From Eukaryota sp. GEM-RC1 (taxonomy: Eukaryota): DNA of 64,000 nucleotides. Both the position numbers and the translations under genes were made by a program. A model generated the notes under the pieces. The model saw only the letters and a program-made list of their open reading frames with translations. It was not told the origin of the DNA and did no database searches. Position 1 is the first letter of the stretch, and each line of letters opens with the position of its first letter. Location: the NCBI GenBank assembly GCA_040285855.1, contig JAUFOQ010000013.1, positions 558,001 through 622,000 of the forward strand, written 5' to 3'. Positions 1,183 to 49,109 of this stretch are shown in pieces.

Positions 1183-1880
1183 TTAAAAATACATTCTATT
1201 TTTGTGTAGTGATTTTAACGACTGTTGTGTTTGACTGTTGATTGAGTTGTTATCTAGATAAATCGTAGTAACTGAAGAATTCACCTTCAAAGCTTCAGCA
1301 ATTGCAATAGCTCCTTCATTACCAATTAAGTTGTTATATAGATTGATCGTAGAAACTGAAGAATTCACCTTCAAAGATTCAGCAATTGCAATAGCTCCTT
1401 CAGGACCAATTGAGTTGTTATCTAGATAAATCGTAGTAACTGAAGAATTCACCTTCAAAGCTTCAGCAATTGCAATAGCTCCTTCATTACCAATTGAGTT
1501 GTTATCTAGATAAATCGTAGAAACCTCATTTCTCACCATTTCATCATAACAATTCTTCAACTTCGAACTAAGCTTGCTCCAATCAATAACAAGCTCCTTC
1601 TCTTCAACTTGTTGTACAAGGCACACACTTTCAATAGACTTGATTGGCGAAGGAGTGTCATCTAGAAGCCTAGCAGAAGCAACATTGGACTCCGAAACAA
1701 CGGAAAGAGAGGCCAAACGACGAGAAGCTTCGGAGTGAATAGAGCAAAGTTCTTCATTTAAAGAGGAGATGATAGCGGATTGGTTGTTAAGTAGGGTGGA
1801 AGTTGTGGTAATGAAGTTTCCTCTTTCAATCTCACCTGTTTCTGTACCTTATCAATAACGTGTTTTGTTTTTAAGATATT
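1183..1880 (-). CDS. LRR cassette 1, long type (linker + 4 LRR)
   Basis: ORF 1183-1716 starts at TTG. Linker SLSVVSESNVASARLLDD precedes the LRRs. Leader is homologous to the RBCC-adjacent copy up to ~1919. Confidence 0.7.
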
Positions 1881-2545
1881 CTAGAGAAAAAATATCCAAT
1901 ACTGGGTCGATTAGTTAATCTTACATAATTTACTAAATTTAAGATGTACAAAAGCGGTTTTGTGTGTTGACACAGAGACAAAAACTTTTTTTGACAACAC
2001 CACTACAGTGTACATACATCTAATAATCAATATCCTCAAAGTCCAGATTGCCTATCCGGAAATTCTCCCCTACTTTGGATAGCCGAAATTGTAATTAACA
2101 TGTCTATAAACTCTTTCTTCAGATATTAATTGTGCAATTCCTAAAACAATTCTGAACATTAGATTTAAAAAAGCACAATCGTAATTTCAATAACATGTAC
2201 TTGCCTATGTAGAAACCGCAGAAACTAATTTAACATAACTAGGTCTTCGTAAATTTAACATCGTCATATGTGTTTCTTCTATTGACTCCAATATTCAACA
2301 CAACAAAAGTACCAGTAAATAACGTGTGTTATTCACCAGGGTAGGACTTAAAATCTGCACCTGAACACCTGCTAAACTACTATGATATTTGACCCTGTCA
2401 CGGAGTTTTGTTTGGGATAATGGTTGTTCCGAGCTAAAGGATTTTTCAAGTGTGTATTATATTCACCGATTAATTATTGTACTTTTGATGGGAAATTAAT
2501 TATGATCAATGACAAATGTGATTTTTTTATACAACGAAAACTTGT

Positions 2546-3698
2546 TTAAAAATACATTCTATTTTTGTGTAGTGATTTTAACGACTGTTGTGTTTGACTG
2601 TTGATTGAGTTGTTATATAGATAAATCGTAGAAACTGCAGAATTCACCTTCAAAGCTTCAGCAATTGCAATAGCTCCTTCAGGACCAATTGAGTTGTTAT
2701 CTAGATCGATCCTAGAAACTGAAGAATTCACCTTCAAAGCTTCAGCAATTGCAATAGCTCCTTCAGGACCAATTGAGTTGTTATCTAGATCGATCCTAGA
2801 AACTGAAGAATTCACCTTCAAAGCTTCAGCAATTGCAATAGCTCCTTCATTACCAATTGAGTTTTCAGCTAGATAAATCTCAGAAACTGAAGAATTCACC
2901 TTCAAAGCTTCAGCAATTGCAATAGCACCTTCAGGACCAATTGAGTTGTTCCTTAGATCGATGGCAAAAACTGAAGAATTCACCTTCAAAGCTTCAGCAA
3001 TTGCAATAGCTCCTTCATTACCAATTGAGTTTTCAGCTAGATAAATCTCAGAAACTGAAGAATTCACCTTCAAAGCTTCAGCAATTGCAATAGCTCCTTC
3101 ATTACCAATTGAGTTGACACCTAGACCAATCGTAGAGACTGAAGAATTCACCTTCAAAGCTTCAGCAATTGCAATAGCTCCTTCATTACCAATTGAGTTG
3201 ACACCTAGACCAATCGTAGAAACTGAAGAATTCACCTTCAAAGCTTCAGCAATTGCAATAGCTCCTTCAGGACCAATTGAGTTGTTACCTAGATCGATCG
3301 CAGAAACCTCATTTCTCACCATTTCATCATAACAATTCTTCAACTTCGAACTAAGCTCGTTCCAATCAATAACAAGCTCCTTCTCTTCAACTTGTTGTAC
3401 AAGGCACACACTTTCAATAGACTTGATTGGCGAAGGAGTGTCATCTAGAAGCCTAGCAGAAGCAACATTGGACTCCGGAAACAACGGAAAGAGAGGCCAA
3501 ACGACGAGAAGCTTCGGAGTGAATAGAGCAAAGTTCTTCATTTAAAGAGGAGATGATAGCAGATTGGTTCTTAAGTAGGGTGGAGGTTGTGGTAATGAAG
3601 TTTTCGCCGATCTTTGGTTTAAAGATTACACCTTTCTTTCTTTTCAATCTCACCTGTTTCTGTACCTTATCAATAACGTGTTTTGTTTTTAAGATATT
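2546..3698 (-). CDS. LRR cassette 2, long type (linker + 9 LRR), 1-nt frameshift near 3477
   Basis: ORFs 3453-3653 and 2546-3541 join if the extra G in gactccggaa is removed. Confidence 0.75.
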
Positions 3699-4364
3699 CT
3701 AGAGAAAAAATATCCAATACTGGGTCGATTAGTTAATTTTACATAATTTACTAAATTTCAGATGTACAAAAAGCGGTTTTGTGTGTTGACACAGAGACAA
3801 AAACTTTTTTTGACAACACCACTACAGTGTACATACATCTAATAATCAATATCCTCAAAGTCCAGATTGCCTATCCGGAAATTCTCCCCTACTTTGGATA
3901 GCCGAAATTGTAATTAACATGTCTATAAACTCTTTCTTCAGATATTAATTGTGCAATTCCTAAAACAATTCTGAACATTAGATTTAAAAAAGCACAATCG
4001 CAATTTCAATAACATGTACTTGCCTATGTAGAAACCGCAGAAATTAATTTAACATAACTAGGTCTCCGTAAATTTAACATCGTCATATGTGTTTCTGCTT
4101 TTGACTCCAATATTCAACACAACAAAAGTACCAGTAAATAACGTGTGTTATTCACCAGGGTAGGACTTAAAATCTACACCTGAACACCTGCTAAACTACT
4201 ATGATATTTGACCCTGTCACGGAGTTTTGTTTGGGATAATGGTTGTTCTGAGCTAAATGATTTTTCAAGTGTGTATTATATTCACCGATTAATTATTGTA
4301 CTTTTGATGGGAAATTAATTATGATCAATGACAAATGTGATTTTTTTATACAACGAAAACTTGT

Positions 4365-5583
4365 TTAAAAATACATTCTATTTTTGTGTAGTGATTTTAA
4401 CGACTGTTGTGTTTGACTGTTGATTGAGTTGTTATTAAGATAAATCGTAGAAACTGAAGAATTTACCTTCAAAGCTTCAGCAATTGCAATAGCTCCTTCA
4501 AGACCAATTGAGTTGGTCCATAGATAAATCTCAGAAACTGAAGAATTCACCTTCAAAGCTTCAGCAATTGTAATAGCTCCTTCAAGACCAATTGAGTTGT
4601 TATCTAGATCGATCCTAGAAACTGAAGAATTCACCTTCAAAGCTTCAGCAATTATAATAGCTCCTTCAGGACCAATTGAGTTGAAACCTAGACCAATCGT
4701 AGAAACTGCAGAATTCACCTTCAAAGCTTCAGCAATTGCAATAACTCCTTCAGAACCAATTGAGTTGTAACCTAGATAAATCTCAGAAACTGAAGAATTC
4801 ACCTTCAAAGCTTCAGCAATTGCAATAGCTCCTTCATTACCAATTGAGTTGTTATCTAGATGGATCGTAGAAACTGAAGAATTCACCTTCAAAGCTTCAG
4901 CAATTGCAATAGCTCCTTCATTACCAATTGAGTTTTCAGCTAGATAAATCTCAGAAACTGAAGAATTCACCTTCAAAGCTTCAGCAATTGCAATAGCTCC
5001 TTCATTACCAATTGAGTTGTTCCATAGATAAATCTCAGAAACTGAAGAATTCACCTTCAAAGCTTCAGCAATTGCAATAGCTCCTTCATTACCAATTGAG
5101 TTGTTATCTAGATAAATCGCAGAAACTGAAGAATTCACCTTCAAAGCTTCAGCAATTGCAATAGCTCCTTCAAGACCAATTGAGTTGTTATCTAGATCGA
5201 TCCTAGAAACCTCATTTCTCACCATTTCATCATAACAATTCTTCAACTTCGAACTAAGCTCGTTCCAATCAATAACAAGCTCCTTCTCTTCAACTTGTTG
5301 TACAAGGCACACACTTTCAATAGACTTGATTGGCGAAGGAGTGTCATCTAGAAGCCTAGCAGAAGCAACATTGGACTCCGAAACAACAGAAAGAGAGGCC
5401 AAACGACGAGAAGCTTCGCAGTGGATAGAGCAAAGTTCTTCATTTAAAGAGGAGATGATAGCAGATTGGTTCTTAAGTAGGGTGGAGGTTGTGGTCGCCG
5501 ATCTTTGGTTTAAAGATTACACCTCTTTTCAATCTCACCTGTTTCTGTACCTTATCAATAACGTGTTTTGTTTTTAAGATATT
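4365..5583 (-). CDS. LRR cassette 3, long type (linker + 10 LRR)
   Basis: ORF 4365-5402. Leader has 6-nt and 11-nt deletions relative to cassettes 2 and 31. Confidence 0.7.
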
Positions 5584-6249
5584 CTAGAGAAAAAATATCC
5601 AATACTGGGTCGATTAGTTAATTTTACATAATTTACTAAATTTCAGATGTACAAAAAGCGGTTTTGTGTGTTGGCACAAACACAAAAACTTTTATTGACA
5701 ACACCACTACAGTGTACATACATCTAATAATCAATATCCGCAAAGTCCAGATTGCCTATCCGGAAATTCTCCCCTACTTTGGATAGCCGAAATTGTAATT
5801 AACATGTCTATAAACTCTTTCTTCAGATATTAATTGTGCAATTCCTAAAACAATTCTGAACATTAGATTTAAAAAAGCACAATCGCAATTTCAATAACAT
5901 GTACTTGCCTATGTAGAAACCGCAGAAATTAATTTAACATAACTAGGTCTTCGTAAATTTAACATCGTCATATGTGTTTCTGCTGTTGACTCCAATATTC
6001 AACACAACAAAAGTACCAGTAAATAACGTGTTTTATTCACCAGGGTAGGACTTAAAATCTGCACCTGAACACCTGCTAAACTACTATGATATTTGACCCT
6101 GTCACGGAGTTTTGTTTGGGATAATGGTTGTTCTGAGCTAAATGATTTTTCAAGTGTGTATTATATTCACCGATTAATTATTGTACTTTTGGTTGGAAAT
6201 TAATTATGATCAATGACAAATGTGATTTTTTTATACAACGAAAACTTGT

Positions 6250-6942
6250 TTAAAAATACATTCTATTTTTGTGTAGTGATTTTAACGACTGTTGTGTTTG
6301 ACTGTTGATTGAGTTGTTATTAAGATAAATCGTAGAAACTGAAGAATTTACCTTCAAAACTTCAGCAATTGCAATAGCTCCTTCAAGACCAATTGAGTTG
6401 TTATCTAGATCGATCCTAGAAACTGAAGAATTCACCTTCAAAGCTTCAGCAATTATAATAGCTCCTTCAGGACCAATTGAGTTGAAACCTAGACCAATCG
6501 TAGAAACTGCAGAATTCACCTTCAAAGCTTCAGCAATTGCAATAGCTCCTTCAGGACCAATTGAGTTGTGCCTTAGATCGATGTAAGAAACTGAAGAATT
6601 CACCTTCAAAGCTTCAGCAATTGCAATAGCCCCTTCATTACCAATTGAGTTGTAACCTAGATAAATCTCAGAAACTGAAGAATTCACCTTCAAAGCTTCA
6701 GCAATTGCAATAGCCCCTTCATTACCAATTGAGTTGTAACCTAGATAAATCTCAGAAACTGAAGAATTCACCTTCAAAGCTTCAGCAATTGCAATAGCTC
6801 CTTCAGTACCAATTGAGTTGTTACCTAGATCGACTGTAGAAACTGAAGAATTCACCTTCAAAGATTCAGCAATTGCAATTGCTCCTTCAGGACCAATTGA
6901 GTTGTTATATAGATTGATCGTAGAAACCTCATTTCTCACCAT
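6250..6942 (-). CDS. LRR cassette 4, short type, 8 LRR
   Basis: ORF MVRNEV...KNRMYF. Confidence 0.7.
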   Translation of the reverse strand: MVRNEVSTINLYNNSIGPEGAIAIAESLKVNSSVSTVDLGNNSIGTEGAIAIAEALKVNSSVSEIYLGYNSIGNEGAIAIAEALKVNSSVSEIYLGYNSIGNEGAIAIAEALKVNSSVSYIDLRHNSIGPEGAIAIAEALKVNSAVSTIGLGFNSIGPEGAIIIAEALKVNSSVSRIDLDNNSIGLEGAIAIAEVLKVNSSVSTIYLNNNSINSQTQQSLKSLHKNRMYF

Positions 6943-7298
6943 TTCATCTCAACAATTGTAATAATGAAACTGTATGTTGGTAATTCGATGGTAAATGTAT
7001 ACTATAAATTAACAATATTTCAGATAATAATAAATCTCTGTTGTTGTTGAGAACAATAGCAAGAGCACCAGTAAATAACGTGTGTTATTCACGAGGGTAC
7101 TTAAAATGTGTACCTGAACATCTGCTAAACTACTATGATATTTGACTCTGTAGCGGATTTTTGTTTGGGATAATGTTTGTTCTGAGCAAAATGATTTTTC
7201 AAGTGTGCATTACATTCATCGTTTAATTATGGTGCTTTTGATGAGAAATTAATTATGATTAATGACAAATGTGATGTTTATAAACAATGAAAACTTGT

Positions 7299-8175
7299 TT
7301 AAAAAAGACATTCTATTTTTGTGTAGTGATTTTAACGACTGTTGTGTTTGACTGTTGATTGAGTTGTTGTCTAGATAAATCGTAGTAACTGAAGAATTCA
7401 CCTTCAAAGCTTCAGCAATTGCAATAGCTCCTTCATTAGCAATTGAGTTGTTTCCTAGATAAATCTCAGAAACTGAAGAATTCACCTTCAAAGCTTCAGC
7501 AATTGCAATAGCTCCTTCATTACCAATTGAGTTGCCACCTAGATAAATCTCAGAAACTGAACCATTCACCTTCAAAGCTTCAGCAATTGCAATAGCTCCT
7601 TCACTACCAATTGAATTGTGCCTTAGATAAATCGTAGAAACTGCAGAATTCACCTTCAAAGCTTCAGCAATTGCAATAGCTCCTTCACTACCAATTGAAT
7701 TGTGCCTTAGATAAATCGTAGAAACTGCAGAATTCACCTTCAAAGCTTCAGCAATTGCAATAGCTCCTTCAGGACCAATTGAGTTGTTATATAGATAAAT
7801 CGTAGAAACTGAAGAATTCACCTTCAAAGCTTCAGCAATTGCAATAGCTCCTTCATTACCAATTGAGTTGTGCCTTAGATCGATCGTAGAAACTAAAGAA
7901 TTCACCTTCAAAGCTTCAGCAATTGCAATAGCTCCTTCAGGACCAATTGAGTTGCCAGCTAGATGGATCGCTCCTGAGTTGTTCCATAGATAAATCTCAG
8001 AAACTGAACAATTCACCTTCAAAGCTTCAGCAATTGCAATAGCTCCTTCACTACCAATTGAATTGTGCCTTAGATAAATCGCAGAAACTGAAGAATTCAC
8101 CTTCAAAGCTTCAGCAATTGCAATAGCTCCTTCAGGACCAATTGAGTTGTAATCTAGATTGATCGTAGAAACCTC
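7299..8175 (-). pseudogene. LRR cassette 5, ATG-less, ~11 LRR including one internally deleted module
   Basis: 2-nt AT insertion after MVRN puts the ATG out of frame. In-frame deletion gives WNNSGAIHL. Extra A at the stop. Confidence 0.75.
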
Positions 8176-8549
8176 ATATTTCTCACCATTTCATCTCAAC
8201 AATTTTAATAATGAAACTGTACATTGGGAATTCGATGGTAAATGTATAGTAGAAATTAACAATTCTTCAGATACTAATAAAGTTCTGTTGTTGTTGTTGT
8301 GAACAATAACAAAAGTACCAGTAAATAACGTGTGTTATTCATTAGGGCAGTATTTAAAATCTGTACTTGAACATCTGCTAAACTACTATGATATTTGACT
8401 GTCACGGAGTTTTGTTTGGGATAATGTTTGTTCTGAGCAAAATGATTTTTCAAATGTGTATTATATTCACCGATTAATTATGGTACTTTTGATGAGAAAT
8501 TAAATATGATTAATAACAAATATGATTTTAATGTACAATGAAAACTTGT

Positions 8550-9230
8550 TTAAAAAGACATTTTATTTTTGTGTAGTGATTTTAATGACTGTTGTGTTTG
8601 ACTGTTGATTGAGTTGTTATCTAGATAAATCGTAGTAACTGAAGAATTCACCTTCAAAGCTTCAGCAATTGCAATAGCTCCTTCATTACCAATTAAGTTG
8701 TTATATAGATTGATCGTAGAAACTGAAGAATTCACCTTCAAAGATTCAGCAATTGCAATAGCTCCTTCAGGACCAATTGAGTTGTTATCTAGATAAATCG
8801 TAGTAACTGAAGAATTCACCTTCAGAGCTTCAGCAATTGCAATAGCTCCTTCATTACCAATTGAGTTGCCACCTAGATAAATCTCAGAAACTGAACAATT
8901 CACCTTCAAAGCTTCAGCAATTGCAATAGCTCCTTCATTACCAATTGAGTTGTGCCTTAGATCGATCGTAGAAACTAAAGAATTCACCTTCAAAGCTTCA
9001 GCAATTGCAATAGCTCCTTCAGGACCAATTGAGTTGTTTCCTAGATGGATCGTAGAAACTGAAGAATTCACCTTCAAAGCTTCAGCAATTGCAATAGCTC
9101 CTTCACTACCAATTGAATTGTGCCTTAGATAAATCGTAGAAACTGCAGAATTCACCTTCAAAGCTTCAGCAATTGCAATAGCTCCTTCAGGACCAATTGA
9201 GTTGTAATCTAGATTGATCGTAGAAACCTC
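8550..9230 (-). pseudogene. LRR cassette 6, ATG-less, 8 LRR
   Basis: Open LRR frame (track ORF 8550-9161 starts at TTG). AT insertion at 5' end. Confidence 0.75.
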
Positions 9231-9604
9231 ATATTTCTCACCATTTCATCTCAACAATTTTAATAATGAAACTGTACATTGGGAATTCGATGGTAAATGT
9301 ATAGTAGAAATTAACAATTCTTCAGATACTAATAAAGTTCTGTTGTTGTTGTTGTGAACAATAACAAAAGTACCAGTAAATAACGTGTGTTATTCATTAG
9401 GGCAGTATTTAAAATCTGTACTTGAACATCTGCTAAACTACTATGATATTTGACTGTCACGGAGTTTTGTTTGGGATAATGTTTGTTCTGAGCAAAATGA
9501 TTTTTCAAGTGTGTATTATATTCACCGATTAATTATGGTACTTTTGATGAGAAATTAAATATGATTAATAACAAATATGATTTTAATGTACAATGAAAAC
9601 TTGT

Positions 9605-10201
9605 TTAAAAAGACATTTTATTTTTGTGTAGTGATTTTAATGACTGTTGTGTTTGACTGTTGATTGAGTTGTTATCTAGATAAATCTCAGAAACTGAAGA
9701 ATTCACCTTCAAAGCTTCAGCAATTGCAATAGCTCCTTCATTACCAATTGAGTTGCCACCTAGATAAATCTCAGAAACTGAACAATTCACCTTCAAAGCT
9801 TCAGCAATTGCAATAGCTCCTTCATTACCAATTGAGTTGCCACCTAGATAAATCTCAGAAACTGAACAATTCACCTTCAAAGCTTCAGCAATTGCAATAG
9901 CTCCTTCACTACCAATTGAATTGTGCCTTAGATAAATCGTAGAAACTGCAGAATTCACCTTCAAAGCTTCAGCAATTGCAATAGCTCCTTCATTACCAAT
10001 TGAGTTGCCACCTAGATAAATCTCAGAAACTGAACAATTCACCTTCAAAGCTTCAGCAATTGCAATAGCTCCTTCACTACCAATTGAATTGTGCCTTAGA
10101 TAAATCGTAGAAACTGCAGAATTCACCTTCAAAGCTTCAGCAATTGCAATAGCTCCTTCAGGACCAATTGAGTTGTAATCTAGATTGATCGTAGAAACCT
10201 C
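9605..10201 (-). pseudogene. LRR cassette 7, ATG-less, 7 LRR
   Basis: Open LRR frame. AT insertion at 5' end. Confidence 0.75.
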
Positions 10202-14838: not shown

Positions 14839-15180
14839 ATATTTCTCACCATTTCATCTCAACAATTTTAATAATGAAACTGTACATTGGGAATTCGATG
14901 GTAAATGTATAGTAGAAATTAACAATTCTTCAGATACTAATAAAGTTCTGTTGTTGTTGTGAACAATAACAAAAGTACCAGTAAATAACGTGTGTTATTC
15001 ATTAGGGCAGTATTTAAAATCTGTACTTGAACATCTGCTAAACTACTATGATATTTGACTGTCACGGAGTTTTGTTTGGGATAATGTTTGTTCTGAGCAA
15101 AATGATTTTTCAAGTGTGTATTATATTCACCGATTAATTATGGTACTTTTGATGAGAGATTAATTATGATTAATGACAAA

Positions 15181-15765
15181 ACTATATGTTTAAGGCTAAT
15201 GGTTTTCATGGAAAAATTGAACCTTTACTTGCTAATCTTTCTGATCAGCCAAAAGTTGATAGAAGTCGTGGTGATTTGATTGGTCCTTGGTTATCTTGTT
15301 AGGAAATTATCGTGGATTTCACGACTGTTGATCCTTGTAATTCAAGATCAATTTCCAAAATTTTTGATGATGATTTTTCTGCTCTTGAAGTGGCTGAAAA
15401 AGGAAAAAATACAAAGTACTGTCACTTAATTAACCAATTGAATGTTGACAGGTACAATTCTTTTGTGTTTCAACCTTTTGCGATGTCGATATATGGTAAT
15501 ATTGGACCAGCTGCACAAGGTTTTTTAACCTCCTTTGGTAAATTGTGTTCTGAGTATGGTAAAGTTTTTAATGAAAATTTTTGGTTGAGTAGGTTAACGT
15601 TTGCGTTGTTTCGTTCAATGCACAGACATTTTAATTCAATTTTAGGTAAGTTGTTCGGTGATGGACAGAAGGATCATAGTTTAGATACTTTAGTTAGTGT
15701 CTGTTAGTTATTAACTTCTGCAAATGCATTTATTTCACTGATTGATCATAAACTCCGTTTTTTTT
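15181..15765 (+). mobile_element. 5'-truncated non-LTR retrotransposon fragment encoding a C-terminal restriction-like endonuclease (RLE)
   Basis: 585-bp insertion in a spacer, flanked by ATGACAAA (15173-15180 and 15766-15773). Frame 15186-15707 reads IEP...RGD...(TAG at 15300)...VDFT...AEKGKNTKY...FQPFAMSIYGNIG, matching the E/RxD/D/K-x-x-KY pattern of CRE/R2/NeSL-type RLE domains. Ends in a T8 run. Confidence 0.8.
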
Positions 15766-15802
15766 ATGACAAATGTGATTTTTATATACAATGAAAACTT
15801 GT

Positions 15803-22545: not shown

Positions 22546-23394
22546 TTAAAAAGACATTCTATTTTTGTTTAGTAATTTTAATGACTGTTGTGTTTGACTG
22601 TTGATTGAGTTGTTTCCTAGATAAATCTCAGAAACTGAAGAATTCACCTTCAAAGCTTCAGCAATTGCAATAGCTCCTTCATTACCAATTGAGTTTTCAG
22701 CTAGATAAATCTCAGAAACTGAAGAATTCACCTTCAAAGCTTCAGCAATCGCAATAGCTCCTTCATTACCAATTGAGTTGTTCCATAGATAAATCTCAGA
22801 AACTGAAGAATTCACCTTCAAAGATTCAGCAATTGCAATTGCTCCTTCAGGACCAATTGAGTTGTTATATAGATTGATCGTAGAAACTGAAGAATTCACC
22901 TTCAAAGCTTCAGCAATTGCAATAGCTCCTTCAGGACCAATTGAGTTGTTTTGTAGATTGATCGTAGAAACTGAAGAATTCACCTTCAAAGCTTCAGCAA
23001 TTGCAATAGCTCCTTCATTACCAATTGAGTTGTTCCATAGATAAATCTCAGAAACTGAAGAATTCACCTTCAAAGCTTCAGCAATTGCAATAGCTCCTTC
23101 AGGACCAATTGAGTTGTTATATAGATTGATCGTAGAAACTGAAGAATTCACCTTCAAAGCTTCAGCAATTGCAATAGCTCCTTCATTACCAATTGAGTTG
23201 TTCCATAGATAAATCTCAGAAACTGAAGAATTCACCTTCAAAGCTTCAGCAATTGCAATAGCTCCTTCAGGACCAATTGAGTTGTTATATAGATTGATCG
23301 TAGAAACTGCAGAATTCACCTTCAAAGCTTCAGCAATTGCAATAGCTCCTTCAGGACCAATTGAGTTGTAATCTAGATTGATCGTAGAAACCTC
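22546..23394 (-). pseudogene. LRR cassette 18, ATG-less, 10 LRR
   Basis: Open LRR frame. AT insertion. Confidence 0.75.
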
Positions 23395-35473: not shown

Positions 35474-36961
35474 TTAAAAAGACATTCTATTTTTGTGTAG
35501 TGATTTTAACGACTGTTGTGTTTGACTGTTGATTGAGTTGTTATCTAGATAAATCGTAGAAACTGAAGAATTCACCTTCAAAGCTTCAGCAATTGCAATA
35601 GCTCCTTCATTACCAATTGAGTTTTCAGCTAGATGGATCGTAGAAACTGAAGAATTCACCTTCAAAGCTTCAGCAATTGCAATAGCTCCTTCATTACCAA
35701 TTGAGTTTTCAGCTAGATAAATCTCAGAAACTGAAGAATTCACCTTCAAAGCTTCAGCAATTGCAATAGCTCCTTCATTACCAATTGAGTTGTTTCCTAG
35801 ATAAATCGTAGAAACTGAAGAATTCACCTTCAAAGCTTCAGCAATTGCAATAGCTCCTTCATTACCAATTGAGTTGTTTCCTAGATAAATCGCAGAAACT
35901 GAAGAATTCACCTTCAAAGCTTCAGCAATTGCAATAGCTCCTTCATTACCAATTGAGTTGTTCCATAGATAAATCGCAGAAACTGAAGAATTCACCTTCA
36001 AAGCTTCAGCAATTGCAATAGCTCCTTCATTACCAATTGAGTTGTTTCCTAGATAAATCGTAGAAACTGAAGAATTCACCTTCAAAGCTTCAGCAATTGC
36101 AATAGCTCCTTCATTACCAATTGAGTTGTTTTGTAGATAAATCGCAGAAACTGAAGAATTCACCTTCAAAGCTTCAGCAATTGCAATAGCTCCTTCAGGA
36201 CCAATTGAGTTGTTATATAGATTGATCGTAGAAACTGAAGAATTCACCTTCAAAGCTTCAGCAATTGCAATAGCTCCTTCAGGACCAATTGAGTTGTTTT
36301 GTAGATAAATCGCAGAAACTGAAGAATTCACCTTCAAAGCTTCAGCAATTGCAATAGCTCCTTCACTACCAATTGAGTTGTTCCATAGATAAATCTCAGA
36401 AACTGAAGAATTCACCTTCAAAGCTTCAGCAATTGCAATAGCTCCTTCAGGACCAATTGAGTTGTTATATAGATTGATCGTAGAAACTGAAGAATTCACC
36501 TTCAAAGCTTCAGCAATTGCAATAGCTCCTTCATTACCAATTGAGTTGTTATCTAGATAAATCGTAGAAACCTCATTTCTCACCATTACATCATAACAAT
36601 TCTTCAACTTCGAACTAAGCTCGTTCCAATCAATAACAAGCTCCTTCTCTTCAACTTGTTGTACAGGGCACACACTTTCAATAGACTTGATTGGTGAAGG
36701 AGTGTCATCTAGAAGCCTAGCAGAAGCAACATTGGACTCCGAAACAACAGAAAGAGAGACCAAACGACGAGAAGCTTCGGAGTGAATAGAGCAAAGTTCT
36801 TCATTTAAAGAGGAGATGATAGCAGATTGGTTCTTAAGTAGGGTGGAGGTTGTGGTAATGAAGTTTTCGCCGATCTTTGGTTTAAAGATTACACCTTTCT
36901 TTCTTTTCAATCTCACCTGTTTCTGTACCTTATCAATAACGTGTTTTGTTTTTAAGATATT
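35474..36961 (-). CDS. LRR cassette 31, long type (linker + 13 LRR), frame open from the TTTTTTCTCTAG acceptor-like site
   Basis: The 480-aa track ORF starts at GTG. The frame extends 15 more codons (NILKTKHVIDKVQKQ) to the TAG at 36962-36964. Confidence 0.8.
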   Translation of the reverse strand, partial: NILKTKHVIDKVQKQVRLKRKKGVIFKPKIGENFITTTSTLLKNQSAIISSLNEELCSIHSEASRRLVSLSVVSESNVASARLLDDTPSPIKSIESVCPVQQVEEKELVIDWNELSSKLKNCYDVMVRNEVSTIYLDNNSIGNEGAIAIAEALKVNSSVSTINLYNNSIGPEGAIAIAEALKVNSSVSEIYLWNNSIGSEGAIAIAEALKVNSSVSAIYLQNNSIGPEGAIAIAEALKVNSSVSTINLYNNSIGPEGAIAIAEALKVNSSVSAIYLQNNSIGNEGAIAIAEALKVNSSVSTIYLGNNSIGNEGAIAIAEALKVNSSVSAIYLWNNSIGNEGAIAIAEALKVNSSVSAIYLGNNSIGNEGAIAIAEALKVNSSVSTIYLGNNSIGNEGAIAIAEALKVNSSVSEIYLAENSIGNEGAIAIAEALKVNSSVSTIHLAENSIGNEGAIAIAEALKVNSSVSTIYLDNNSINSQTQQSLKSLHKNRMSF

Positions 36962-37628
36962 CTAGAGAAAAAATATCCAATACTGGGTCGATTAGTTAAT
37001 TTTACATAATTTACTAAATTTCAGATGTACAAAAAGCGGTTTTGTGTGTTGACACAGAGACAAAAACTTTTTTTGACAACACCACTACAGTGTACATACA
37101 TCTAATAATCAATATCCTCAAAGTCCAGATTGCCTATCCGGAAATTCTCCCCTACTTTGGATAGCCGAAATTGTAATTAACATGTCTATAAACTCTTTCT
37201 TCAGATATTAATTGTGCAATTCCTAAAACAATTCTGAACATTAGATTTAAAAAAGCACAATCGCAATTTCAATAACATGTACTTGCCTATGTAGAAACCG
37301 CAGAAATTAATTTAACATAACTAGGTCTCCGTAAATTTAACATCGTCATATGTGTTTCTGCTTTTGACTCCAATATTCAACACAACAAAAGTACCAGTAA
37401 ATAACGTGTGTTATTCACCAGGGTAGGACTTAAAATCTACACCTGAACACCTGCTAAACTACTATGATATTTGACCCTGTCACGGAGTTTTGTTTGGGAT
37501 AATGGTTGTTCTGAGCTAAATGATTTTTCAAGTGTGTATTATATTCACCGATTAATTATTGTACTTTTGATGGGAAATTAATTATGATCAATGACAAATG
37601 TGATTTTTTTTATACAACGAAAACTTGT

Positions 37629-40090: not shown

Positions 40091-40446
40091 TTCATCTCAA
40101 CACTTGTAATAATGAAACTGTATGTTGGTAATTCGATGGTAAATGTATACTATAAATTAACAATATTTCAGATACTAATAAATCTCTGTTGTTGTTGAGA
40201 ACAATAGCAAGAGCACCAGTAAATAACGTGTGTTATTCACGAGGGTACTTAAAATGTGTACCTGAACATCTGCTAAACTACTATGATATTTGACTCTGTA
40301 GCGGAGTTTTGTTTGGGATAATGTTTGTTCTGAGCAAAATGATTTTTCAAGTGTGCATTACATTCATCGTTTAATTATGGTGCTTTTGATGAGAAATTAA
40401 TTATGATTAATGACAAATGTGATTTTTATAAACAATGAAAACTTGT

Positions 40447-40804
40447 TTAAAAAAGACATTCTATTTTTGTGTAGTGATTTTAACGACTGTTGTGTTTGAC
40501 TGTTGATTGAGTTGTTATCTAGAGAAATCGTAGAAACTGAAGAATTCACCTTCAACGCTTCAGCAATTGCAATAGCTCCTTCATTACCAATTGAGTTGGT
40601 CCATAGATTGATCGTAGAAACTGAAGAATTCACCTTCAAAGCTTCAGCAATTGCAATTGCTCCTTCAGGACCAATTGAGTTGTTATATAGATTGATCGTA
40701 GAAACTGAAGAATTCACCTTCAAAGATTCAGCAATTGCAATAGCTGCTTCAGGACCAATTGAGTTGTTATATAGATTGATCGTAGAAACCTCATTTCTCA
40801 CCAT
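40447..40804 (-). CDS. LRR cassette 35, short type, 4 LRR
   Basis: ORF MVRNEV. Extra A at the usual stop. Confidence 0.7.
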
Positions 40805-40989
40805 TTCATCTCAACACTTGTAATAATGAAACTGTATGTTGGTAATTCGATGGTAAATGTATACTATAAATTAACAATATTTCAGATACTAATGAATCTC
40901 TGTTGTTGTTGAGAACAATAGCAAGAGCACCAGTAAATAACGTGTGTTATTCACGAGGGTACTTAAAATGTGTACCTGAACATCTGCTA

Positions 40990-41267
40990 ATCGTAGAAAC
41001 TGAAGAATTCACCTTCAAAGCTTCAGCAATTGCAATAGCTCCTTCAGTACCAATTGAGTTGTTACCTAGATCGACTGTAGAAACTGAAGAATTCACCTTC
41101 AAAGATTCAGCAATTGCAATTGCTCCTTCAGGACCAATTGAGTTGTTATATAGATTGATCGTAGAAACTGAAGAATTCACCTTCAAAGATTCAGCAATTG
41201 CAATAGCTCCTTCAGGACCAATTGAGTTGTTATATAGATTGATCGTAGAAACCTCATTTCTCACCAT
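40990..41267 (-). pseudogene. LRR cassette 36, 3'-truncated by a deletion fusing it into the spacer
   Basis: Junction catctgctaa|tcgtagaaac at 40990. C-terminal cap is missing. Confidence 0.8.
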
Positions 41268-41623
41268 TTCATCTCAACAATTGTAATAATGAAACTGTAT
41301 GTTGGTAATTCGATGGTAAATGTATACTATAAATTAACAATATTTCAGATACTAATAAATCTCTGTTGTTGTTGAGAACAATAGCAAGAGCACCAGTAAA
41401 TAACGTGTGTTATTCACGAGGGTACTTAAAATGTGTACCTGAACATCTGCTAAACTACTATGATATTTGACTCTGTAGCGGAGTTTTGTTTGGGATAATG
41501 TTTGTTCTGAGCAAAATGATTTTTCAAGTGTGCATTACATTCATCGTTTAATTATGGTGCTTTTGATGAGAAATTAATTATGATTAATGACAAATGTGAT
41601 TTTTATAAACAATGAAAACTTGT

Positions 41624-42904
41624 TTAAAAAGACATTCTATTTTTGTGTAGTGATTTTAACGACTGTTGTGTTTGATTGCTGATTGAGTTGTTATCTAGAT
41701 AAATCGTAGAAACTGAAGAATTCACCTTCAACGCTTCAGCAATTGCAATAGCTCCTTCATTACCAATTGAGTTGTTATCTAGATAAATCGTAGAAACTGA
41801 AGAATTCACCTTCAAAGCTTCAGCAATTGCAATAGCTCCTTCATTACCAATTAAGTTGTACCATAGATTGATCTTAGAAACTGAAGAATTCACCTTCAAA
41901 GCTTCAGCAATTGCAATAGCTCCTTCATTACCAATTGAGTTGTACCATAGATAAATCTCAGAAACTGAAGAATTCACCTTCAGAGCTTCAGCAATTGCAA
42001 TAGCTCCTTCATTACCAATTGAGTTGTACCATAGATAAATCTCAGAAACTGAAGAATTCACCTTCAGAGCTTCAGCAATTGCAATAGCTCCTTCATTACC
42101 AATTGAGTTGTCACCTAGATAAATCGTAGAAACTGAAGAATTCACCTTCAAAGCTTCAGCAATTGCAATAGCTCCTTCATTACCAATTGAGTTGTCACCT
42201 AGATAAATCGTAGAAACTGAAGAATTCACCTTCAAAGCTTCAGCAATTGCAATAGCTCCTTCGACAGCAATTGAGTTGTTCCATAGATAAATCGTAGAAA
42301 CTGAAGAATTCACCTTGAAAGCTTCAGCAATTGCAATAGCTCCTTCGACACCAATTGAGTTGTTATATAGATTGATCGTAGAAACTGAAGAATTCACCTT
42401 CAAAGCTTCAGCAATTGCAATAGCGCCTTCAGGACCAATTGAGTTGTTAAATAGATAAATCGTAGAAACTGAAAAATTCACCTTCAAAGCTTCAGCAATT
42501 GCAATAGCTCCTTCGACAGCAATTGAGTTGTTCCATAGATAAATCGTAGAAACTGAAGAATTCACCTTCAAAGCTTCAGCAATTGCAATAGCTCCTTCGA
42601 CACCAATTGAGTTGTTATATAGATTGATCGTAGAAACTGAAGAATTCACCTTCAAAGCTTCAGCAATTGCAATAGCGCCTTCAGGACCAATTGAGTTGTT
42701 AAATAGATAAATCGTAGAAACTGAAGAATTCACCTTCAAAGCTTCAGCAATTGCAATAGCTCCTTCAGTACCAATTGAGTTGTTACCTAGATCGACTGTA
42801 GAAACTGAAGAATTCACCTTCAAAGATTCAGCAATTGCAATTGCTCCTTCAGGACCAATTGAGTTGTTATATAGATTGATCGTAGAAACCTCATTTCTCA
42901 CCAT
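41624..42904 (-). CDS. LRR cassette 37, short type, 15 LRR
   Basis: 426-aa ORF MVRNEV...KNRMSF. Confidence 0.75.
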   Translation of the reverse strand: MVRNEVSTINLYNNSIGPEGAIAIAESLKVNSSVSTVDLGNNSIGTEGAIAIAEALKVNSSVSTIYLFNNSIGPEGAIAIAEALKVNSSVSTINLYNNSIGVEGAIAIAEALKVNSSVSTIYLWNNSIAVEGAIAIAEALKVNFSVSTIYLFNNSIGPEGAIAIAEALKVNSSVSTINLYNNSIGVEGAIAIAEAFKVNSSVSTIYLWNNSIAVEGAIAIAEALKVNSSVSTIYLGDNSIGNEGAIAIAEALKVNSSVSTIYLGDNSIGNEGAIAIAEALKVNSSVSEIYLWYNSIGNEGAIAIAEALKVNSSVSEIYLWYNSIGNEGAIAIAEALKVNSSVSKINLWYNLIGNEGAIAIAEALKVNSSVSTIYLDNNSIGNEGAIAIAEALKVNSSVSTIYLDNNSISNQTQQSLKSLHKNRMSF

Positions 42905-43260
42905 TTCATCTCAACAATTGTAATAATGAAACTGTATGTTGGTAATTCGATGGTAAATGTATACTATAAATTAACAATATTTCAGATACTAATAAATCTC
43001 TCTTGTTGTTGAGAACAATAGCAAGAGCACCAGTAAATAACGTGTGTTATTCACGAGGGTACTTAAAATGTGTACCTGAACATCTGCTAAACTACTATGA
43101 TATTTGACTCTGTAGCGGAGTTTTGTTTGGGATAATGTTTGTTCTGAGCAAAATGATTTTTCAAGTGTGCATTACATTCATCGTTTAATTATGGTGCTTT
43201 TGATGAGAAATTAATTATGATTAATGACAAATGTGATTTTTATAAACAATGAAAACTTGT

Positions 43261-43698
43261 TCAAAAAGACATTCTATTTTTGTGTAGTGATTTTAACGAC
43301 TGTTGTGTTTGACTGTTGATTGAGTTGTTATCTAGATAAATCGTAGTAACTGAAGAATTCACCTTCAACGCTTCAGCAATTGCAATAGCTCCTTCATTAC
43401 CAATTGAGTTGTTATCTAGATAAATCGTAGTAACTGAAGAATTCACCTTCAAAGCTTCAGCAATTGCAATAGCTCCTTCACTACCAATTGAGTTGTTACC
43501 TAGAGAAATCGTAGAAACTGAAGGATTCACCTTCAACGCTTCAGCAATTGCAATAGCTCCTTCATTACCAATTAAGTTGTTATATAGATTGATCTTAGAA
43601 ACTGAAGAATTCACCTTCAAAGCTTCAGCAATTGCAATAGCTCCTTCATTACCAATTGAGTTGTTATCTAGATAAATCGTAGAAACTGAAGAATTCAC
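43261..43698 (-). pseudogene. LRR cassette 38, ATG-less (GAA AGG GTG AAT), 5 LRR
   Basis: Open frame from GTG with a TGA stop. Same 5' end as cassette 8. Confidence 0.7.
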
Positions 43699-44060
43699 CC
43701 TTTCATCTCAACAATTTTAATAATGAAACTGTACATTGGTAATTCGATGGTAAGTGTACAGTATAAATTAACAATATTTCAGATACTAATAAATTTCTGT
43801 TGTTGTTGAGAACAATAGGAAAAGTAGCAGTAAATAATGTGTGTTAGTCACCAGGGTATTACTTAAAATCTGTACTTGAACATCTGCTAAACTACTATGA
43901 TATTTGACTCTGTCACGGAGTTTTGTTTGGGATAATGGTTGTTCTGAGCTAAATGATTTTTCAAGTGTGCATTACATTCACAGTTTAATTATGGTGCTTT
44001 TGATGAGAAATTAATTATGATTAATGGAAAATGTGATTTTTATATGTAATGAAAACTTGT

Positions 44061-44501
44061 TTAAAAAGAGATTCTATTTTTGTGTAGTGATTTTAACGAC
44101 TGCTGTGTTTGACTGTTGATTGAGTTGTCACCTAGATAAATCGTAGAAACTGAAGAATTCACCTTCAAAGATTCAGCAATTGCAATAGCTCCTTCAGGAC
44201 TAATTGAGTTGTTATATAGATTGATCGTAGAAACTGAAGAATTCACCTTCAAAGATTCAGCAATTGCAATAGCTCCTTCAGGACCAACTGAGTTGTTATC
44301 TAGATAAATCGTAGTAACTGAAGAATTCACCTTCAAAGCTTCAGCAATTGCAATAGCTCCTTCAGTACCAATTGAGTTGTTACCTAGATCGACTGTAGAA
44401 ACTGAAGAATTCACCTTCAAAGATTCAGCAATTGCAATTGCTCCTTCAGGACCAATTGAGTTGTTATATAGATTGATCGTAGAAACCTCATTTCTCACCA
44501 T
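44061..44501 (-). CDS. LRR cassette 39, short type, 5 LRR
   Basis: ORF MVRNEV...KNRISF. Confidence 0.7.
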   Translation of the reverse strand: MVRNEVSTINLYNNSIGPEGAIAIAESLKVNSSVSTVDLGNNSIGTEGAIAIAEALKVNSSVTTIYLDNNSVGPEGAIAIAESLKVNSSVSTINLYNNSISPEGAIAIAESLKVNSSVSTIYLGDNSINSQTQQSLKSLHKNRISF

Positions 44502-44857
44502 TTCATCTCAACAATTGTAATAATGAAACTGTATGTTGGTAATTCGATGGTAAATGTATACTATAAATTAACAATATTTCAGATACTAATAAATCTCTGT
44601 TGTTGTTGAGAACAATAGCAAGAGCACCAGTAAATAACGTGTGTTATTCACGAGGGTACTTAAAATGTGTACCTGAACATCTGCTAAACTACTATGATAT
44701 TTGACTCTGTAGCGGAGTTTTGTTTGGGATAATGTTTGTTCTGAGCAAAATGATTTTTCAAGTGTGCATTACATTCATCGTTTAATTATGGTGCTTTTGA
44801 TGAGAAATTAATTATGATTAATGACAAATGTGATTTTTATAAACAATGAAAACTTGT

Positions 44858-45298
44858 TTAAAAAGACATTCTATTTTTGTGTAGTGATTTTAACGACTGT
44901 TGTGTTTGACTGTTGATTGAGTTGTTATCTAGATAAATCGTAGTAACTGAAGAATTCACCTTCAACGCTTCAGCAATTGCAATAGCTCCTTCATTACCAA
45001 TTAAGTTGTTATATAGATTGATCGTAGAAACTGAAGAATTCACCTTCAAAGCTTCAGCAATTGCAATAGCTCCTTCATTACCAATTAAGTTGTTATATAG
45101 ATTGATCGTAGAAACTGAAGAATTCACCTTCAAAGATTCAGCAATTGCAATAGCTCCTTCAGGACCAATTGAGTTGTTACCTAGATCGACTGTAGAAACT
45201 GAAGAATTCACCTTCAAAGATTCAGCAATTGCAATTGCTCCTTCAGGACCAATTGAGTTGTTATATAGATTGATCGTAGAAACCTCATTTCTCACCAT
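44858..45298 (-). CDS. LRR cassette 40, short type, 5 LRR
   Basis: ORF MVRNEV...KNRMSF. Confidence 0.7.
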   Translation of the reverse strand: MVRNEVSTINLYNNSIGPEGAIAIAESLKVNSSVSTVDLGNNSIGPEGAIAIAESLKVNSSVSTINLYNNLIGNEGAIAIAEALKVNSSVSTINLYNNLIGNEGAIAIAEALKVNSSVTTIYLDNNSINSQTQQSLKSLHKNRMSF

Positions 45299-45654
45299 TT
45301 CATCTCAACAATTGTAATAATGAAACTGTATGTTGGTAATTCGATGGTAAATGTATACTATAAATTAACAATATTTCAGATACTAATAAATCTCTGTTGT
45401 TGTTGAGAACAATAGCAAGAGCACCAGTAAATAACGTGTGTTATTCACGAGGGTACTTAAAATGTGTACCTGAACATCTGCTAAACTACTATGATATTTG
45501 ACTCTGTAGCGGAGTTTTGTTTGGGATAATGTTTGTTCTGAGCAAAATGATTTTTCAAGTGTGCATTACATTCATCGTTTAATTATGGTGCTTTTGATGA
45601 GAAATTAATTATGATTAATGACAAATGTGATTTTTATAAACAATGAAAACTTGT

Positions 45655-46263
45655 TTAAAAAGACATTCTATTTTTGTGTAGTGATTTTAACGACTGTTGT
45701 GTTTGACTGTTGATTGAGTTGTTATCTAGATAAATCGTAGTAACTGAAGAATTCACCTTCAACGCTTCAGCAATTGCAATAGCTCCTTCATTACCAATTA
45801 AGTTGTTATATAGATTGATCGTAGAAACTGAAGAATTCACCTTCAAAGCTTCAGCAATCGCAATAGCTCCTTCAGGACCAATTGAGTTGAAACCTAGACC
45901 AATCGTAGAAACTGCAGAATTCACCTTCAAAGCTTCAGCAATTTCAATAGCTCCTTCAGGACCAATTGAGTTGTGCCTTAGATCGATGTAAGAAACTGAA
46001 GAATTCACCTTCAAAGCTTCAGCAATTGCAATAGCGCCTTCAGGACCAATTGAGTTGTAACCTAGATAAATCTCAGAAACTGAAGAATTCACCTTCAAAG
46101 CTTCAGCAATTGCAATAGCTCCTTCAGGACCAATTGAGTTGTTAAATAGATAAATCTTAGAAACTGAAGAATTCACCTTCAAAGATTCAGCAATTGCAAT
46201 TGCTCCTTCAGGACCAATTGAGTTGTTATATAGATTGATCGTAGAAACCTCATTTCTCACCAT
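45655..46263 (-). CDS. LRR cassette 41, short type, 7 LRR
   Basis: ORF differs from cassette 43 by one residue. Confidence 0.7.
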   Translation of the reverse strand: MVRNEVSTINLYNNSIGPEGAIAIAESLKVNSSVSKIYLFNNSIGPEGAIAIAEALKVNSSVSEIYLGYNSIGPEGAIAIAEALKVNSSVSYIDLRHNSIGPEGAIEIAEALKVNSAVSTIGLGFNSIGPEGAIAIAEALKVNSSVSTINLYNNLIGNEGAIAIAEALKVNSSVTTIYLDNNSINSQTQQSLKSLHKNRMSF

Positions 46264-46619
46264 TTCATCTCAACAATTGTAATAATGAAACTGTATGTTG
46301 GTAATTCGATGGTAAATGTATACTATAAATTAACAATATTTCAGATACTAATAAATCTCTGTTGTTGTTGAGAACAATAGCAAGAGCACCAGTAAATAAC
46401 GTGTGTTATTCACGAGGGTACTTAAAATGTGTACCTGAACATCTGCTAAACTACTATGATATTTGACTCTGTAGCGGAGTTTTGTTTGGGATAATGTTTG
46501 TTCTGAGCAAAATGATTTTTCAAGTGTGCATTACATTCATCGTTTAATTATGGTGCTTTTGATGAGAAATTAATTATGATTAATGACAAATGTGATTTTT
46601 ATAAACAATGAAAACTTGT

Positions 46620-46976
46620 TTAAAAAGACATTCTATTTTTGTGTAGTGATTTTAACGACTGTTGTGTTTGACTGTTGATTGAGTTGTTATCTAGATAAAT
46701 CGTAGTAACTGAAGAATTCACCTTCAACGCTTCAGCAATTGCAATAGCTCCTTCATTACCAATTAAGTTGTTATCTAGATAAATCGTAGTAACTGAAGAA
46801 TTCACCTTCAACGCTTCAGCAATTGCAATAGCTCCTTCATTACCAATTAAGTTGTTATATAGATTGATCGTAGAAACTGAAGAATTCACCTTCAAAGATT
46901 CAGCAATTGCAATTGCTCCTTCAGGACCAATTGAGTTGTTATATAGATTGATCGTAGAAACCTCATTTCTCACCAT
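46620..46976 (-). CDS. LRR cassette 42, short type, 4 LRR
   Basis: ORF MVRNEV...KNRMSF. Confidence 0.7.
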   Translation of the reverse strand: MVRNEVSTINLYNNSIGPEGAIAIAESLKVNSSVSTINLYNNLIGNEGAIAIAEALKVNSSVTTIYLDNNLIGNEGAIAIAEALKVNSSVTTIYLDNNSINSQTQQSLKSLHKNRMSF

Positions 46977-47332
46977 TTCATCTCAACAATTGTAATAATG
47001 AAACTGTATGTTGGTAATTCGATGGTAAATGTATACTATAAATTAACAATATTTCAGATACTAATAAATCTCTGTTGTTGTTGAGAACAATAGCAAGAGC
47101 ACCAGTAAATAACGTGTGTTATTCACGAGGGTACTTAAAATGTGTACCTGAACATCTGCTAAACTACTATGATATTTGACTCTGTAGCGGAGTTTTGTTT
47201 GGGATAATGTTTGTTCTGAGCAAAATGATTTTTCAAGTGTGCATTACATTCATCGTTTAATTATGGTGCTTTTGATGAGAAATTAATTATGATTAATGAC
47301 AAATGTGATTTTTATAAACAATGAAAACTTGT

Positions 47333-47941
47333 TTAAAAAGACATTCTATTTTTGTGTAGTGATTTTAACGACTGTTGTGTTTGACTGTTGATTGAGTTGT
47401 TATCTAGATAAATCGTAGTAACTGAAGAATTCACCTTCAACGCTTCAGCAATTGCAATAGCTCCTTCATTACCAATTAAGTTGTTATATAGATTGATCGT
47501 AGAAACTGAAGAATTCACCTTCAAAGCTTCAGCAATCGCAATAGCTCCTTCAGGACCAATTGAGTTGAAACCTAGACCAATCGTAGAAACTGCAGAATTC
47601 ACCTTCAAAGCTTCAGCAATTGCAATAGCTCCTTCAGGACCAATTGAGTTGTGCCTTAGATCGATGTAAGAAACTGAAGAATTCACCTTCAAAGCTTCAG
47701 CAATTGCAATAGCGCCTTCAGGACCAATTGAGTTGTAACCTAGATAAATCTCAGAAACTGAAGAATTCACCTTCAAAGCTTCAGCAATTGCAATAGCTCC
47801 TTCAGGACCAATTGAGTTGTTAAATAGATAAATCTTAGAAACTGAAGAATTCACCTTCAAAGATTCAGCAATTGCAATTGCTCCTTCAGGACCAATTGAG
47901 TTGTTATATAGATTGATCGTAGAAACCTCATTTCTCACCAT
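47333..47941 (-). CDS. LRR cassette 43, short type, 7 LRR
   Basis: ORF MVRNEV...KNRMSF. Confidence 0.7.
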   Translation of the reverse strand: MVRNEVSTINLYNNSIGPEGAIAIAESLKVNSSVSKIYLFNNSIGPEGAIAIAEALKVNSSVSEIYLGYNSIGPEGAIAIAEALKVNSSVSYIDLRHNSIGPEGAIAIAEALKVNSAVSTIGLGFNSIGPEGAIAIAEALKVNSSVSTINLYNNLIGNEGAIAIAEALKVNSSVTTIYLDNNSINSQTQQSLKSLHKNRMSF

Positions 47942-48297
47942 TTCATCTCAACAATTGTAATAATGAAACTGTATGTTGGTAATTCGATGGTAAATGTATA
48001 CTATAAATTAACAATATTTCAGATACTAATAAATCTCTGTTGTTGTTGAGAACAATAGCAAGAGCACCAGTAAATAACGTGTGTTATTCACGAGGGTACT
48101 TAAAATGTGTACCTGAACATCTGCTAAACTACTATGATATTTGACTCTGTAGCGGAGTTTTGTTTGGGATAATGTTTGTTCTGAGCAAAATGATTTTTCA
48201 AGTGTGCATTACATTCATCGTTTAATTATGGTGCTTTTGATGAGAAATTAATTATGATTAATGACAAATGTGATTTTTATAAACAATGAAAACTTGT

Positions 48298-49079
48298 TTA
48301 AAAAGACATTCTATTTTTGTGTAGTGATTTTAACGACTGTTGTGTTTGACTGTTGATTGAGTTGTTATCTAGATAAATCGTAGTAACTGAAGAATTCACC
48401 TTCAACGCTTCAGCAATTGCAATAGCTCCTTCATTACCAATTAAGTTGTTATCTAGATAAATCGTAGTAACTGAAGAATTCACCTTCAACGCTTCAGCAA
48501 TTGCAATAGCTCCTTCATTACCAATTAAGTTGTTATATAGATTGATCGTAGAAACTGAAGAATTCACCTTCAAAGATTCAGCAATTGCAATAGCTCCTTC
48601 AGGACCAATTGAGTTGTTATCTAGATAAATCGTAGTAACTGAAGAATTCACCTTCAGAGCTTCAGCAATTGCAATAGCTCCTTCATTACCAATTGAGTTG
48701 TCACCTAGATCGATCTCAGAAACCTCATTTCTCACCATTTCATCATAACAATTCTTCAACTTCGAACTAAGCTTGCTCCAATCAATAACAAGCTCCTTCT
48801 CTTCAACTTGTTGTACAAGGCACACACTTTCAATAGACTTGATTGGCGAAGGAGTGTCATCTAGAAGCCTAGCAGAAGCAACATTGGACTCCGAAACAAC
48901 GGAAAGAGAGGCCAAACGACGAGAAGCTTCGGAGTGAATAGAGCAAAGTTCTTCATTTAAAGAGGAGATGATAGCGGATTGGTTGTTAAGTAGGGTGGAA
49001 GTTGTGGTAATGAAGTTTCCTCTTTCAATCTCACCTGTTTCTGTACCTTATCAATAACGTGTTTTGTTTTTAAGATATT
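48298..49079 (-). CDS. LRR cassette 44, long type (linker + 5 LRR), abutting the RBCC ORF; probable 3' half of an RBCC-LRR gene
   Basis: Track ORF 48298-48915. The frame is open further upstream (GEIERGNFITTTSTLLNNQSAIISSLNEELCSIH) to ~49047. Confidence 0.75.
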
Positions 49080-49109
49080 CTAGAGAAAAAATATCCAATA
49101 CTGGGTCGA

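Follow-up and report, generated by a model that had tools for sequence, protein, structure and literature searches.

A headless array of leucine-rich repeat cassettes as a putative module reservoir for TRIM-like genes in Eukaryota sp. GEM-RC1

The stretch of DNA analysed here, hereafter the window, comprises 64,000 nucleotides of Eukaryota sp. GEM-RC1 (assembly GCA_040285855.1, contig JAUFOQ010000013.1, positions 558,001–622,000 of the forward strand). It carries a tandem array of leucine-rich repeat (LRR) cassettes downstream of, and on the same strand as, the broken head of a TRIM-like gene. The 28-codon LRR modules vary chiefly at codons 3, 5, 7 and 8 (x3, x5, x7 and x8, the face codons) and at codon 13 (x13). 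Selection for diversity at the face together with concerted evolution of the remaining codons, the scaffold, very probably explains this pattern. We further suggest, with a probability of about 0.6 and from comparison of the modules with those of related genes, that the headless array may be a reservoir which swaps modules with diversifying TRIM-like LRR receptor genes. A first-pass annotation of the window had proposed diversifying selection on a binding surface with a scaffold homogenised by recombination; our results support that proposal, and none of the contrary outcomes named with it was obtained.

Variation among the modules and probable selection on the predicted binding face

The LRR modules, all on the minus strand, number 341, that is, 298 internal ones of 84 nt and 43 terminal ones. 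Removal of three internal modules which were frame-shifted or partial left 295 in register, and one further module damaged by a deletion was left out of the statistics. The remaining 294 represent 124 distinct DNA sequences, 108 distinct protein sequences and 51 combinations of residues at x3, x5, x7 and x8. The residues listed for the five variable positions in the first-pass annotation match the module counts exactly, and its claim that variation is concentrated rather than evenly spread over the module holds both for per-base entropy and for nonsynonymous diversity (piN) by codon class. Entropy amounts to 0.9–1.7 bits at the first positions of all five codons and at the second positions of x3, x7 and x13, and is lower at the second positions of x5 (0.34) and x8 (0.58); scaffold bases range from 0 to 0.55, the exception being the synonymous third position of I4 (0.99). 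PiN is 0.428 at the face codons, 0.491 at codon 13 and 0.019 in the scaffold. Tyr, Trp, Phe and His together make up 39% of the residues at x5, x7 and x8, a composition which may be paratope-like. The residue at x13 shows a gradient along the cassettes, Pro and Ser lying early (mean relative positions 0.36 and 0.33) and Asn late (0.69).

The annotation had also described the scaffold as nearly invariant even at synonymous sites. This is correct for 12 of its 23 third positions, which are invariant in 295/295 modules, but overstated for the scaffold as a whole: its synonymous diversity (piS) is 0.070 (0.077 over all codons; 0.044 in the scaffold without I4), comparable to the diversity of 0.059 among 39 short non-coding spacers. 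The scaffold is therefore young, not frozen. The polymorphic third positions are those of I4 (134/295 with the alternative base), N9, G15, A16, A18 and A22, with 13–134 alternative bases each. The four-fold third position of L6, between the hypervariable x5 and x7, carries the same base in 293/295 modules.

Several lines of evidence argue for selection at the face. The ratio of piN at the face to piS over all codons is 5.6, a value attained in 2, 2, 5 and 8 of 250 runs of neutral coalescent simulations (60 sequences) under four settings; in the same simulations the weakest of the four face codons was equalled in 1, 0, 0 and 0 of 250 runs. Minimum allele counts are 3.3-fold higher at the face than at all silent sites (p = 2e-5), or 4.6-fold when singletons are left out (p = 1e-6). 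Approximate per-codon omega (dN/dS) is 9.1–10.4 at the face (likelihood-ratio statistic 40–47), 7.0–10.4 at x13 and 0.69–0.90 in the scaffold; among the 28 codons, intervals above 1 are confined to 3, 5, 7, 8 and 13.

Some points weigh against this interpretation. The omega values come from a recombination-tolerant composite-likelihood approximation which was written for this analysis and modelled on genomegaMap, and which is not a published program. The strand block has elevated synonymous change too, and when nonsynonymous alleles at the face are set against the silent sites of that block the excess is just 1.9-fold with all alleles (p = 0.07), rising to 3.5-fold without singletons (p = 0.007). 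Finally, scaffold omega is indistinguishable from 1, as dead copies would give.

The raised synonymous change in the strand block might point instead to a targeted mutator, such as the adenine mutagenesis of a diversity-generating retroelement or a deaminase, or to a local hot spot, which would diversify the face codons without selection. Alleles at x5 and x8 mostly retain their third base (NNT, NNC), and the window does contain a reverse-transcriptase remnant. Its matches, however, are RVT_1 and RT_RNaseH in the layout of a long terminal repeat (LTR) retrotransposon. Silent adenines at nt 30, 42, 63 and 84 of the module are unchanged in 295/295 modules and that at nt 18 in 293/295, which is not the signature of adenine mutagenesis, and simulated codon-level rate variation produced all four codons in 0/250 runs under each of two settings. 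Alleles seen once comprise two nonsynonymous and two synonymous ones at the face and 13 nonsynonymous and five synonymous ones in the scaffold, some of them possibly errors; the face thus shows no excess of nonsynonymous private alleles, with 2 in 9.3 sites compared with 13 in the 50.7 sites of the scaffold. Because private mutations are evenly spread, selection rather than targeted mutation is likely to be behind the pattern, and we consider a mutator very improbable. New mutations are likely not aimed at the face, whose variants are retained.

An assembly artefact we regard as scarcely credible. Three 1-nt frameshifts at homopolymers in a neighbouring kelch gene do suggest long-read errors, and the cassette number and the singletons may contain some errors; yet errors have no means of singling out four codons, identical alleles recur in proteins of other loci, and the spacers fall into classes which are regional along the array.

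The position of the variable residues was judged from a single-sequence AlphaFold model of cassette 14, in which the predicted local distance difference test score exceeds 90 across most repeats. The model resembles the horseshoe of ribonuclease inhibitor (RI; E 2e-21). Within each module a strand spans positions 3–5 (up to 7) and a helix begins at 12 or 13 and ends at 25, and x3, x5 and x7 alternate in the strand with the near-invariant I4 and L6. In the geometry of the LxxLxLxxN motif positions 3, 5, 7 and 8 point to the concave side and the adjoining loop. From this rule, which supplies the outward direction, x3, x5, x7 and x8 are predicted to line a concave binding face. The placement of the variable residues on that face, as first annotated, is supported for these four; x13 is predicted to lie off the sheet, at the N-terminus of the helix. 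In the linker ahead of the repeats the model, which covers cassette 14, predicts a 29-residue helix at low confidence.

That recombination acts on the modules is evident both within and between them, as the first-pass annotation had supposed. Linkage (r2) declines with distance within the module (Spearman -0.16, permutation p = 0.0015), and 231 of 967 marker pairs show all four gametes, to which recurrent mutation can contribute. Module order is reshuffled, with 138 distinct combinations among 296 neighbour pairs, and common modules have as many as 11 different predecessors and 12 successors.

The cassette array and its broken head

The array occupies positions 1–48723 (minus strand), with 45 cassettes of 3–15 modules separated by spacers of mostly about 370 bp; 39 of the 45 are distinct. 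It runs on past the left edge of the window, which cuts cassette 45 (47–808), and is therefore longer than the 1183–48915 first reported. Cassette 45 also has three in-frame internal partial duplications of a stretch coding for NSIGPEGAIA.

A linker of about 100 codons is retained in five long cassettes. Cassette 1 (48298–49015, minus) consists of a linker remnant, five modules and a C-terminal cap, in a frame which differs from that of the head. Cassette 14 (35474–37001, minus), the subject of the structural model, has the linker and 13 modules. Cassette 42 (4365–5623, minus) bears deletions at the start of its linker, that of cassette 43 (2546–3738, minus) has a 1-nt insertion, and that of cassette 44 (1183–1919, minus) is 99% identical to the linker of cassette 1. 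The other 40 cassettes begin at one common breakpoint immediately before the first module. A 2-nt insertion and no in-frame ATG characterise 21 of these, three others lack an ATG, and 16 have one in frame. An in-frame start is absent from 24 of the 45 cassettes and an in-frame head from all of them.

The spacer between cassettes 33 and 34 holds a unique insertion of 586 bp (15180–15765, plus strand) with a short direct repeat, ATGACAAA, at its flanks and a run of T at its end. One frame of it resembles the endonuclease end of a non-LTR retrotransposon; a Pfam scan of the insertion, which took a different frame, gave no match. Every module contains, at codons 16–20 of the scaffold, a near-palindrome of 14–16 nt centred on TTGCAA, which may simply result from the A-I-A-I-A codons or may mark a site prone to recombination. 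An inverted-repeat search of 47300–50200 returned chiefly this element, and no recombination signal was prominent.

Upstream of cassette 1 lies the head, an open reading frame (ORF) of 236 aa at 49110–49820 (minus) which specifies a RING, two B-boxes (Pfam matches) and the start of a predicted coiled coil. Its product is identical to P0004 of the protein collection searched, and its closest relatives are P0001 (99%), P0002 and P0003, all under the NCBI name Eukaryota sp. GEM-RC1. P0001 (595 aa) and P0005 (668 aa) are intact RING-B-box-B-box-linker-LRR proteins. The head ORF differs from them at three places within residues 1–232, is unrelated thereafter, and stops where the intact paralogues read on into the linker and LRRs. 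It ends early because a non-TRIM piece of about 100 bp (49016–49119, minus), recognised by blastn and alignment and also found ahead of the other four long cassettes, replaces the start of the linker. Reading TAA and TAG as Gln, which might join the head to cassette 1, was considered and dropped, since it would leave the frameshift in place and the intact paralogues are read without any recoding (judged from sequence).

Pfam places RING, B-box 1 and B-box 2 in the order found in TRIM/RBCC proteins (RING, B-box, coiled coil), and neither P0001 nor the window ORFs scanned contain a NACHT or NB-ARC domain. Among the best 149 other relatives of the head two carry these LRRs, both from the same strain; three from strain TZLM1-RC are without them. 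A metagenome scan based on P0001 turned up 87 matches to the pattern, none of which was confirmed as a relative. The strain is described as Skoliomonas sp. GEMRC, a free-living metamonad with a nanopore and Illumina assembly (PMC11316075); the word "leucine" is absent from the main text of that paper, the supplements of which may mention LRR families.

Modules shared with intact TRIM-like genes

Exact array modules occur in four proteins on two contigs, including 5 of the 8 modules of P0001 and 4 of the 10 of P0005. Near-identical scaffolds are found in proteins on two other contigs, one of which (P0279) has a different N-terminal part. P0001 and the start-less cassette 27 (22546–23391, minus) have five consecutive modules in common with at most one residue different per module, a run reached in 0/300 shuffles. 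It includes a T-N-Q-N module which is found once in the array, and P0001 departs from the cassette here mainly by a new residue at x8. Module comparison establishes exchange, or else a very recent common origin, of array and intact-gene modules. The same strain possesses a large family of 28-aa LRR proteins (P0033, P0046, P0279 and about 35 others) with varied heads (reticulon, kinase or unlabelled) and varied face residues.

Parts of this comparison tell against a reservoir. The shuffle control is lenient, given that P0001 has runs of three or four modules in common with five other cassettes as well; ordered runs shared between the array and P0005, P0277 or P0282 are no better than chance, and P0002 has none at all. 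Nor does a shared run give the direction of transfer.

In their present state most cassettes are not possible targets of selection, which therefore probably acted in intact genes at other loci. The array would then be a series of 5'-truncated copies, each derived from the LRR portion of a TRIM-like gene (RING-B-box-B-box-coiled-coil-LRR), built up by unequal crossing-over, which together with gene conversion would keep the scaffold young. Mutation would fall evenly, and selection would keep face variants in the intact, presumably expressed genes. By established TRIM and LRR biology the intact protein would be a cytosolic E3 ubiquitin ligase whose concave LRR face picks the target; a variable protein of foreign origin, viral or from an intracellular bacterium, would be the likeliest candidate. 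Conversion would move modules between array and genes, so that the array could hand old variants back to the intact genes.

The last step is what separates a reservoir from a dead by-product, in which selection on the face is real but the 3' end of a gene has been amplified by unequal crossing-over into a record of past alleles that gives nothing back. The broken head, a scaffold omega near 1, private variants at 13 nonsynonymous to 5 synonymous, the frameshifts, one truncation and one insertion within the array, a genome which is 48% repetitive (PMC11316075) and the lack of a prominent recombination signal in the region searched would all suit such a relic. Against it, there are no stop codons in 295 modules, although fewer than one would be expected and the point is weak. 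Less easily accommodated is that the run most like an intact gene sits in a cassette without a start, and that face variants far exceed the supply from the intact genes seen: 12 of the 20 x7x8 pairs of the array are absent from the near-scaffold modules of 41 annotated proteins of the organism, an incomplete sample. We consider a dead array unlikely, if readily conceivable.

Alternatively the cassettes might themselves be expressed and selected directly, either by splicing of the head to one or another of them as its last exon, or by translation into small LRR-only proteins starting at the ATG which 16 short cassettes possess. They do lie downstream of the head on its strand with mostly open frames, an AG marks the cassette junction and a second one immediately precedes module 1, and branch-point-like and polypyrimidine-AG motifs can be read from the sequence in 49016–49119. 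But the intact paralogues are each one uninterrupted ORF and the annotated head protein ends at 236 aa, splicing at the junction AG would run into a stop or a shifted frame in 21 cassettes, and the acceptors of short cassettes are purine-rich. An exact look-up of ten cassette ORFs in the protein collection found none, and none was listed above 81% identity, which is weak evidence as repeats were masked before gene calling (PMC11316075). A look-up of sequencing runs for 48700–58600 returned none, which bears on expression in neither direction. Direct expression we therefore judge improbable.

Should the array be a reservoir, a bolder extension is an antibody-like intracellular defence, in which modules from a silent archive of hundreds would often be transferred by gene conversion into a few TRIM-LRR ligase genes, so that clones of one population differ in the targets they tag for destruction. 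We put this forward as a speculation that is probably incorrect.

Beyond the head the window contains the gene for a cysteine-rich, kelch-repeat, predicted membrane protein (54893–58519, minus) split by the frameshifts mentioned above, each at a homopolymer run and likely a long-read error. Fragmented frames at 53490–54130 (minus) resemble Sel1-type repeats. The decayed LTR-retrotransposon-like remnant with the RVT_1 (below cut-off) and RT_RNaseH matches lies at 59600–64000 (plus).

Comparison with known systems

A literature search on TRIM plus LRR in protists, and on silent cassettes plus LRR, yielded no paper on this system by title or start of abstract, most subscription journals being outside its scope. 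PRDM9 was considered as a parallel and set aside. The closest parallels concern the codon pattern. In the NWD genes of Podospora (het-d, het-e) WD repeats are exchanged within and between loci and four codons per repeat are under diversifying selection on a binding surface; pseudogenes of that family keep intact repeats, and one is described without a start codon (PMC1805685). The ANK and TPR repeats of fungal NLRs likewise show concerted evolution, selected surface codons and high internal conservation (PMC4986451). The ROCO LRR exons of Ectocarpus are reported to be under positive selection at exon sites 15, 17, 19 and 20, and non-coding LRRs have been proposed as a reservoir (PMC3341825; PMC11378527). 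By the consensus printed there these sites correspond to LxxLxLxxN positions 3, 5, 7 and 8, the same four as in the present array.

The homogeneity of the repeats, both inside a locus and from one locus to another, the few codons with dN/dS above 1, the predicted placement of the selected residues on a binding surface, the shuffling of repeats and the variation in module number (3–15) are of the het-e/ROCO type. The architecture differs. The fungal genes place WD40, ANK or TPR repeats on NACHT or NB-ARC, with about ten dispersed NWD genes, whereas here LRRs follow a RING-B-box head and at least 45 headless cassettes stand in tandem. Ectocarpus has one 72-nt LRR per exon, spare exons within introns and a ROC-COR GTPase effector, as against modules here of 84 nt without introns, grouped several to a cassette and located outside the intact gene.

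TRIM5 and TRIM21 are examples of TRIM/RBCC ubiquitin ligases. The intact proteins share with that family the order RING, B-box, B-box, a predicted helical region and a putative C-terminal target-binding domain (PMC2533329). They differ in having an RI-like LRR array at the C-terminus, and LRR is a term absent from that paper. The NLRC3-like 28-aa LRR arrays of corals, Mortierellaceae, Capsaspora and haptophytes, compared at the protein level, belong to the same repeat class and have the same variable positions, on NACHT, kinase or other heads. In each of 67 other proteins with at least seven modules of this kind the face varies more than the scaffold, and in 49/67 scaffold heterozygosity is below 0.25, again at the protein level.

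Silent-cassette systems include the variable lymphocyte receptors (VLRs) of lampreys, Borrelia vls, trypanosome VSG and the immunoglobulin pseudogenes of chickens. The array resembles them in its many start-less cassettes with flanking homology to a complete gene and, as in VLRs, in a variable concave LRR face. Programmed somatic assembly, a deaminase and a single expression site are features of those systems. The repeats of the array are RI-like and 28 aa long, compared with 24 aa in VLRs, and the product is predicted to be cytosolic rather than on the surface.

If modules do flow from the array to the intact genes, a single cell, that of a free-living anaerobic flagellate, would possess a recognition repertoire supplied from cassettes. 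The idea of diversified immune receptors outside animals, which has been argued for brown algae (PMC3341825), would then become testable in a culturable organism. In addition, with 51 naturally occurring face combinations on an otherwise fixed scaffold, the modules offer a natural library for studies of LRR binding. Set beside the systems above, the codon pattern alone is familiar; what matters is the combination of a TRIM-like ligase, a variable LRR sensor and a large array of headless cassettes which shares modules with it.

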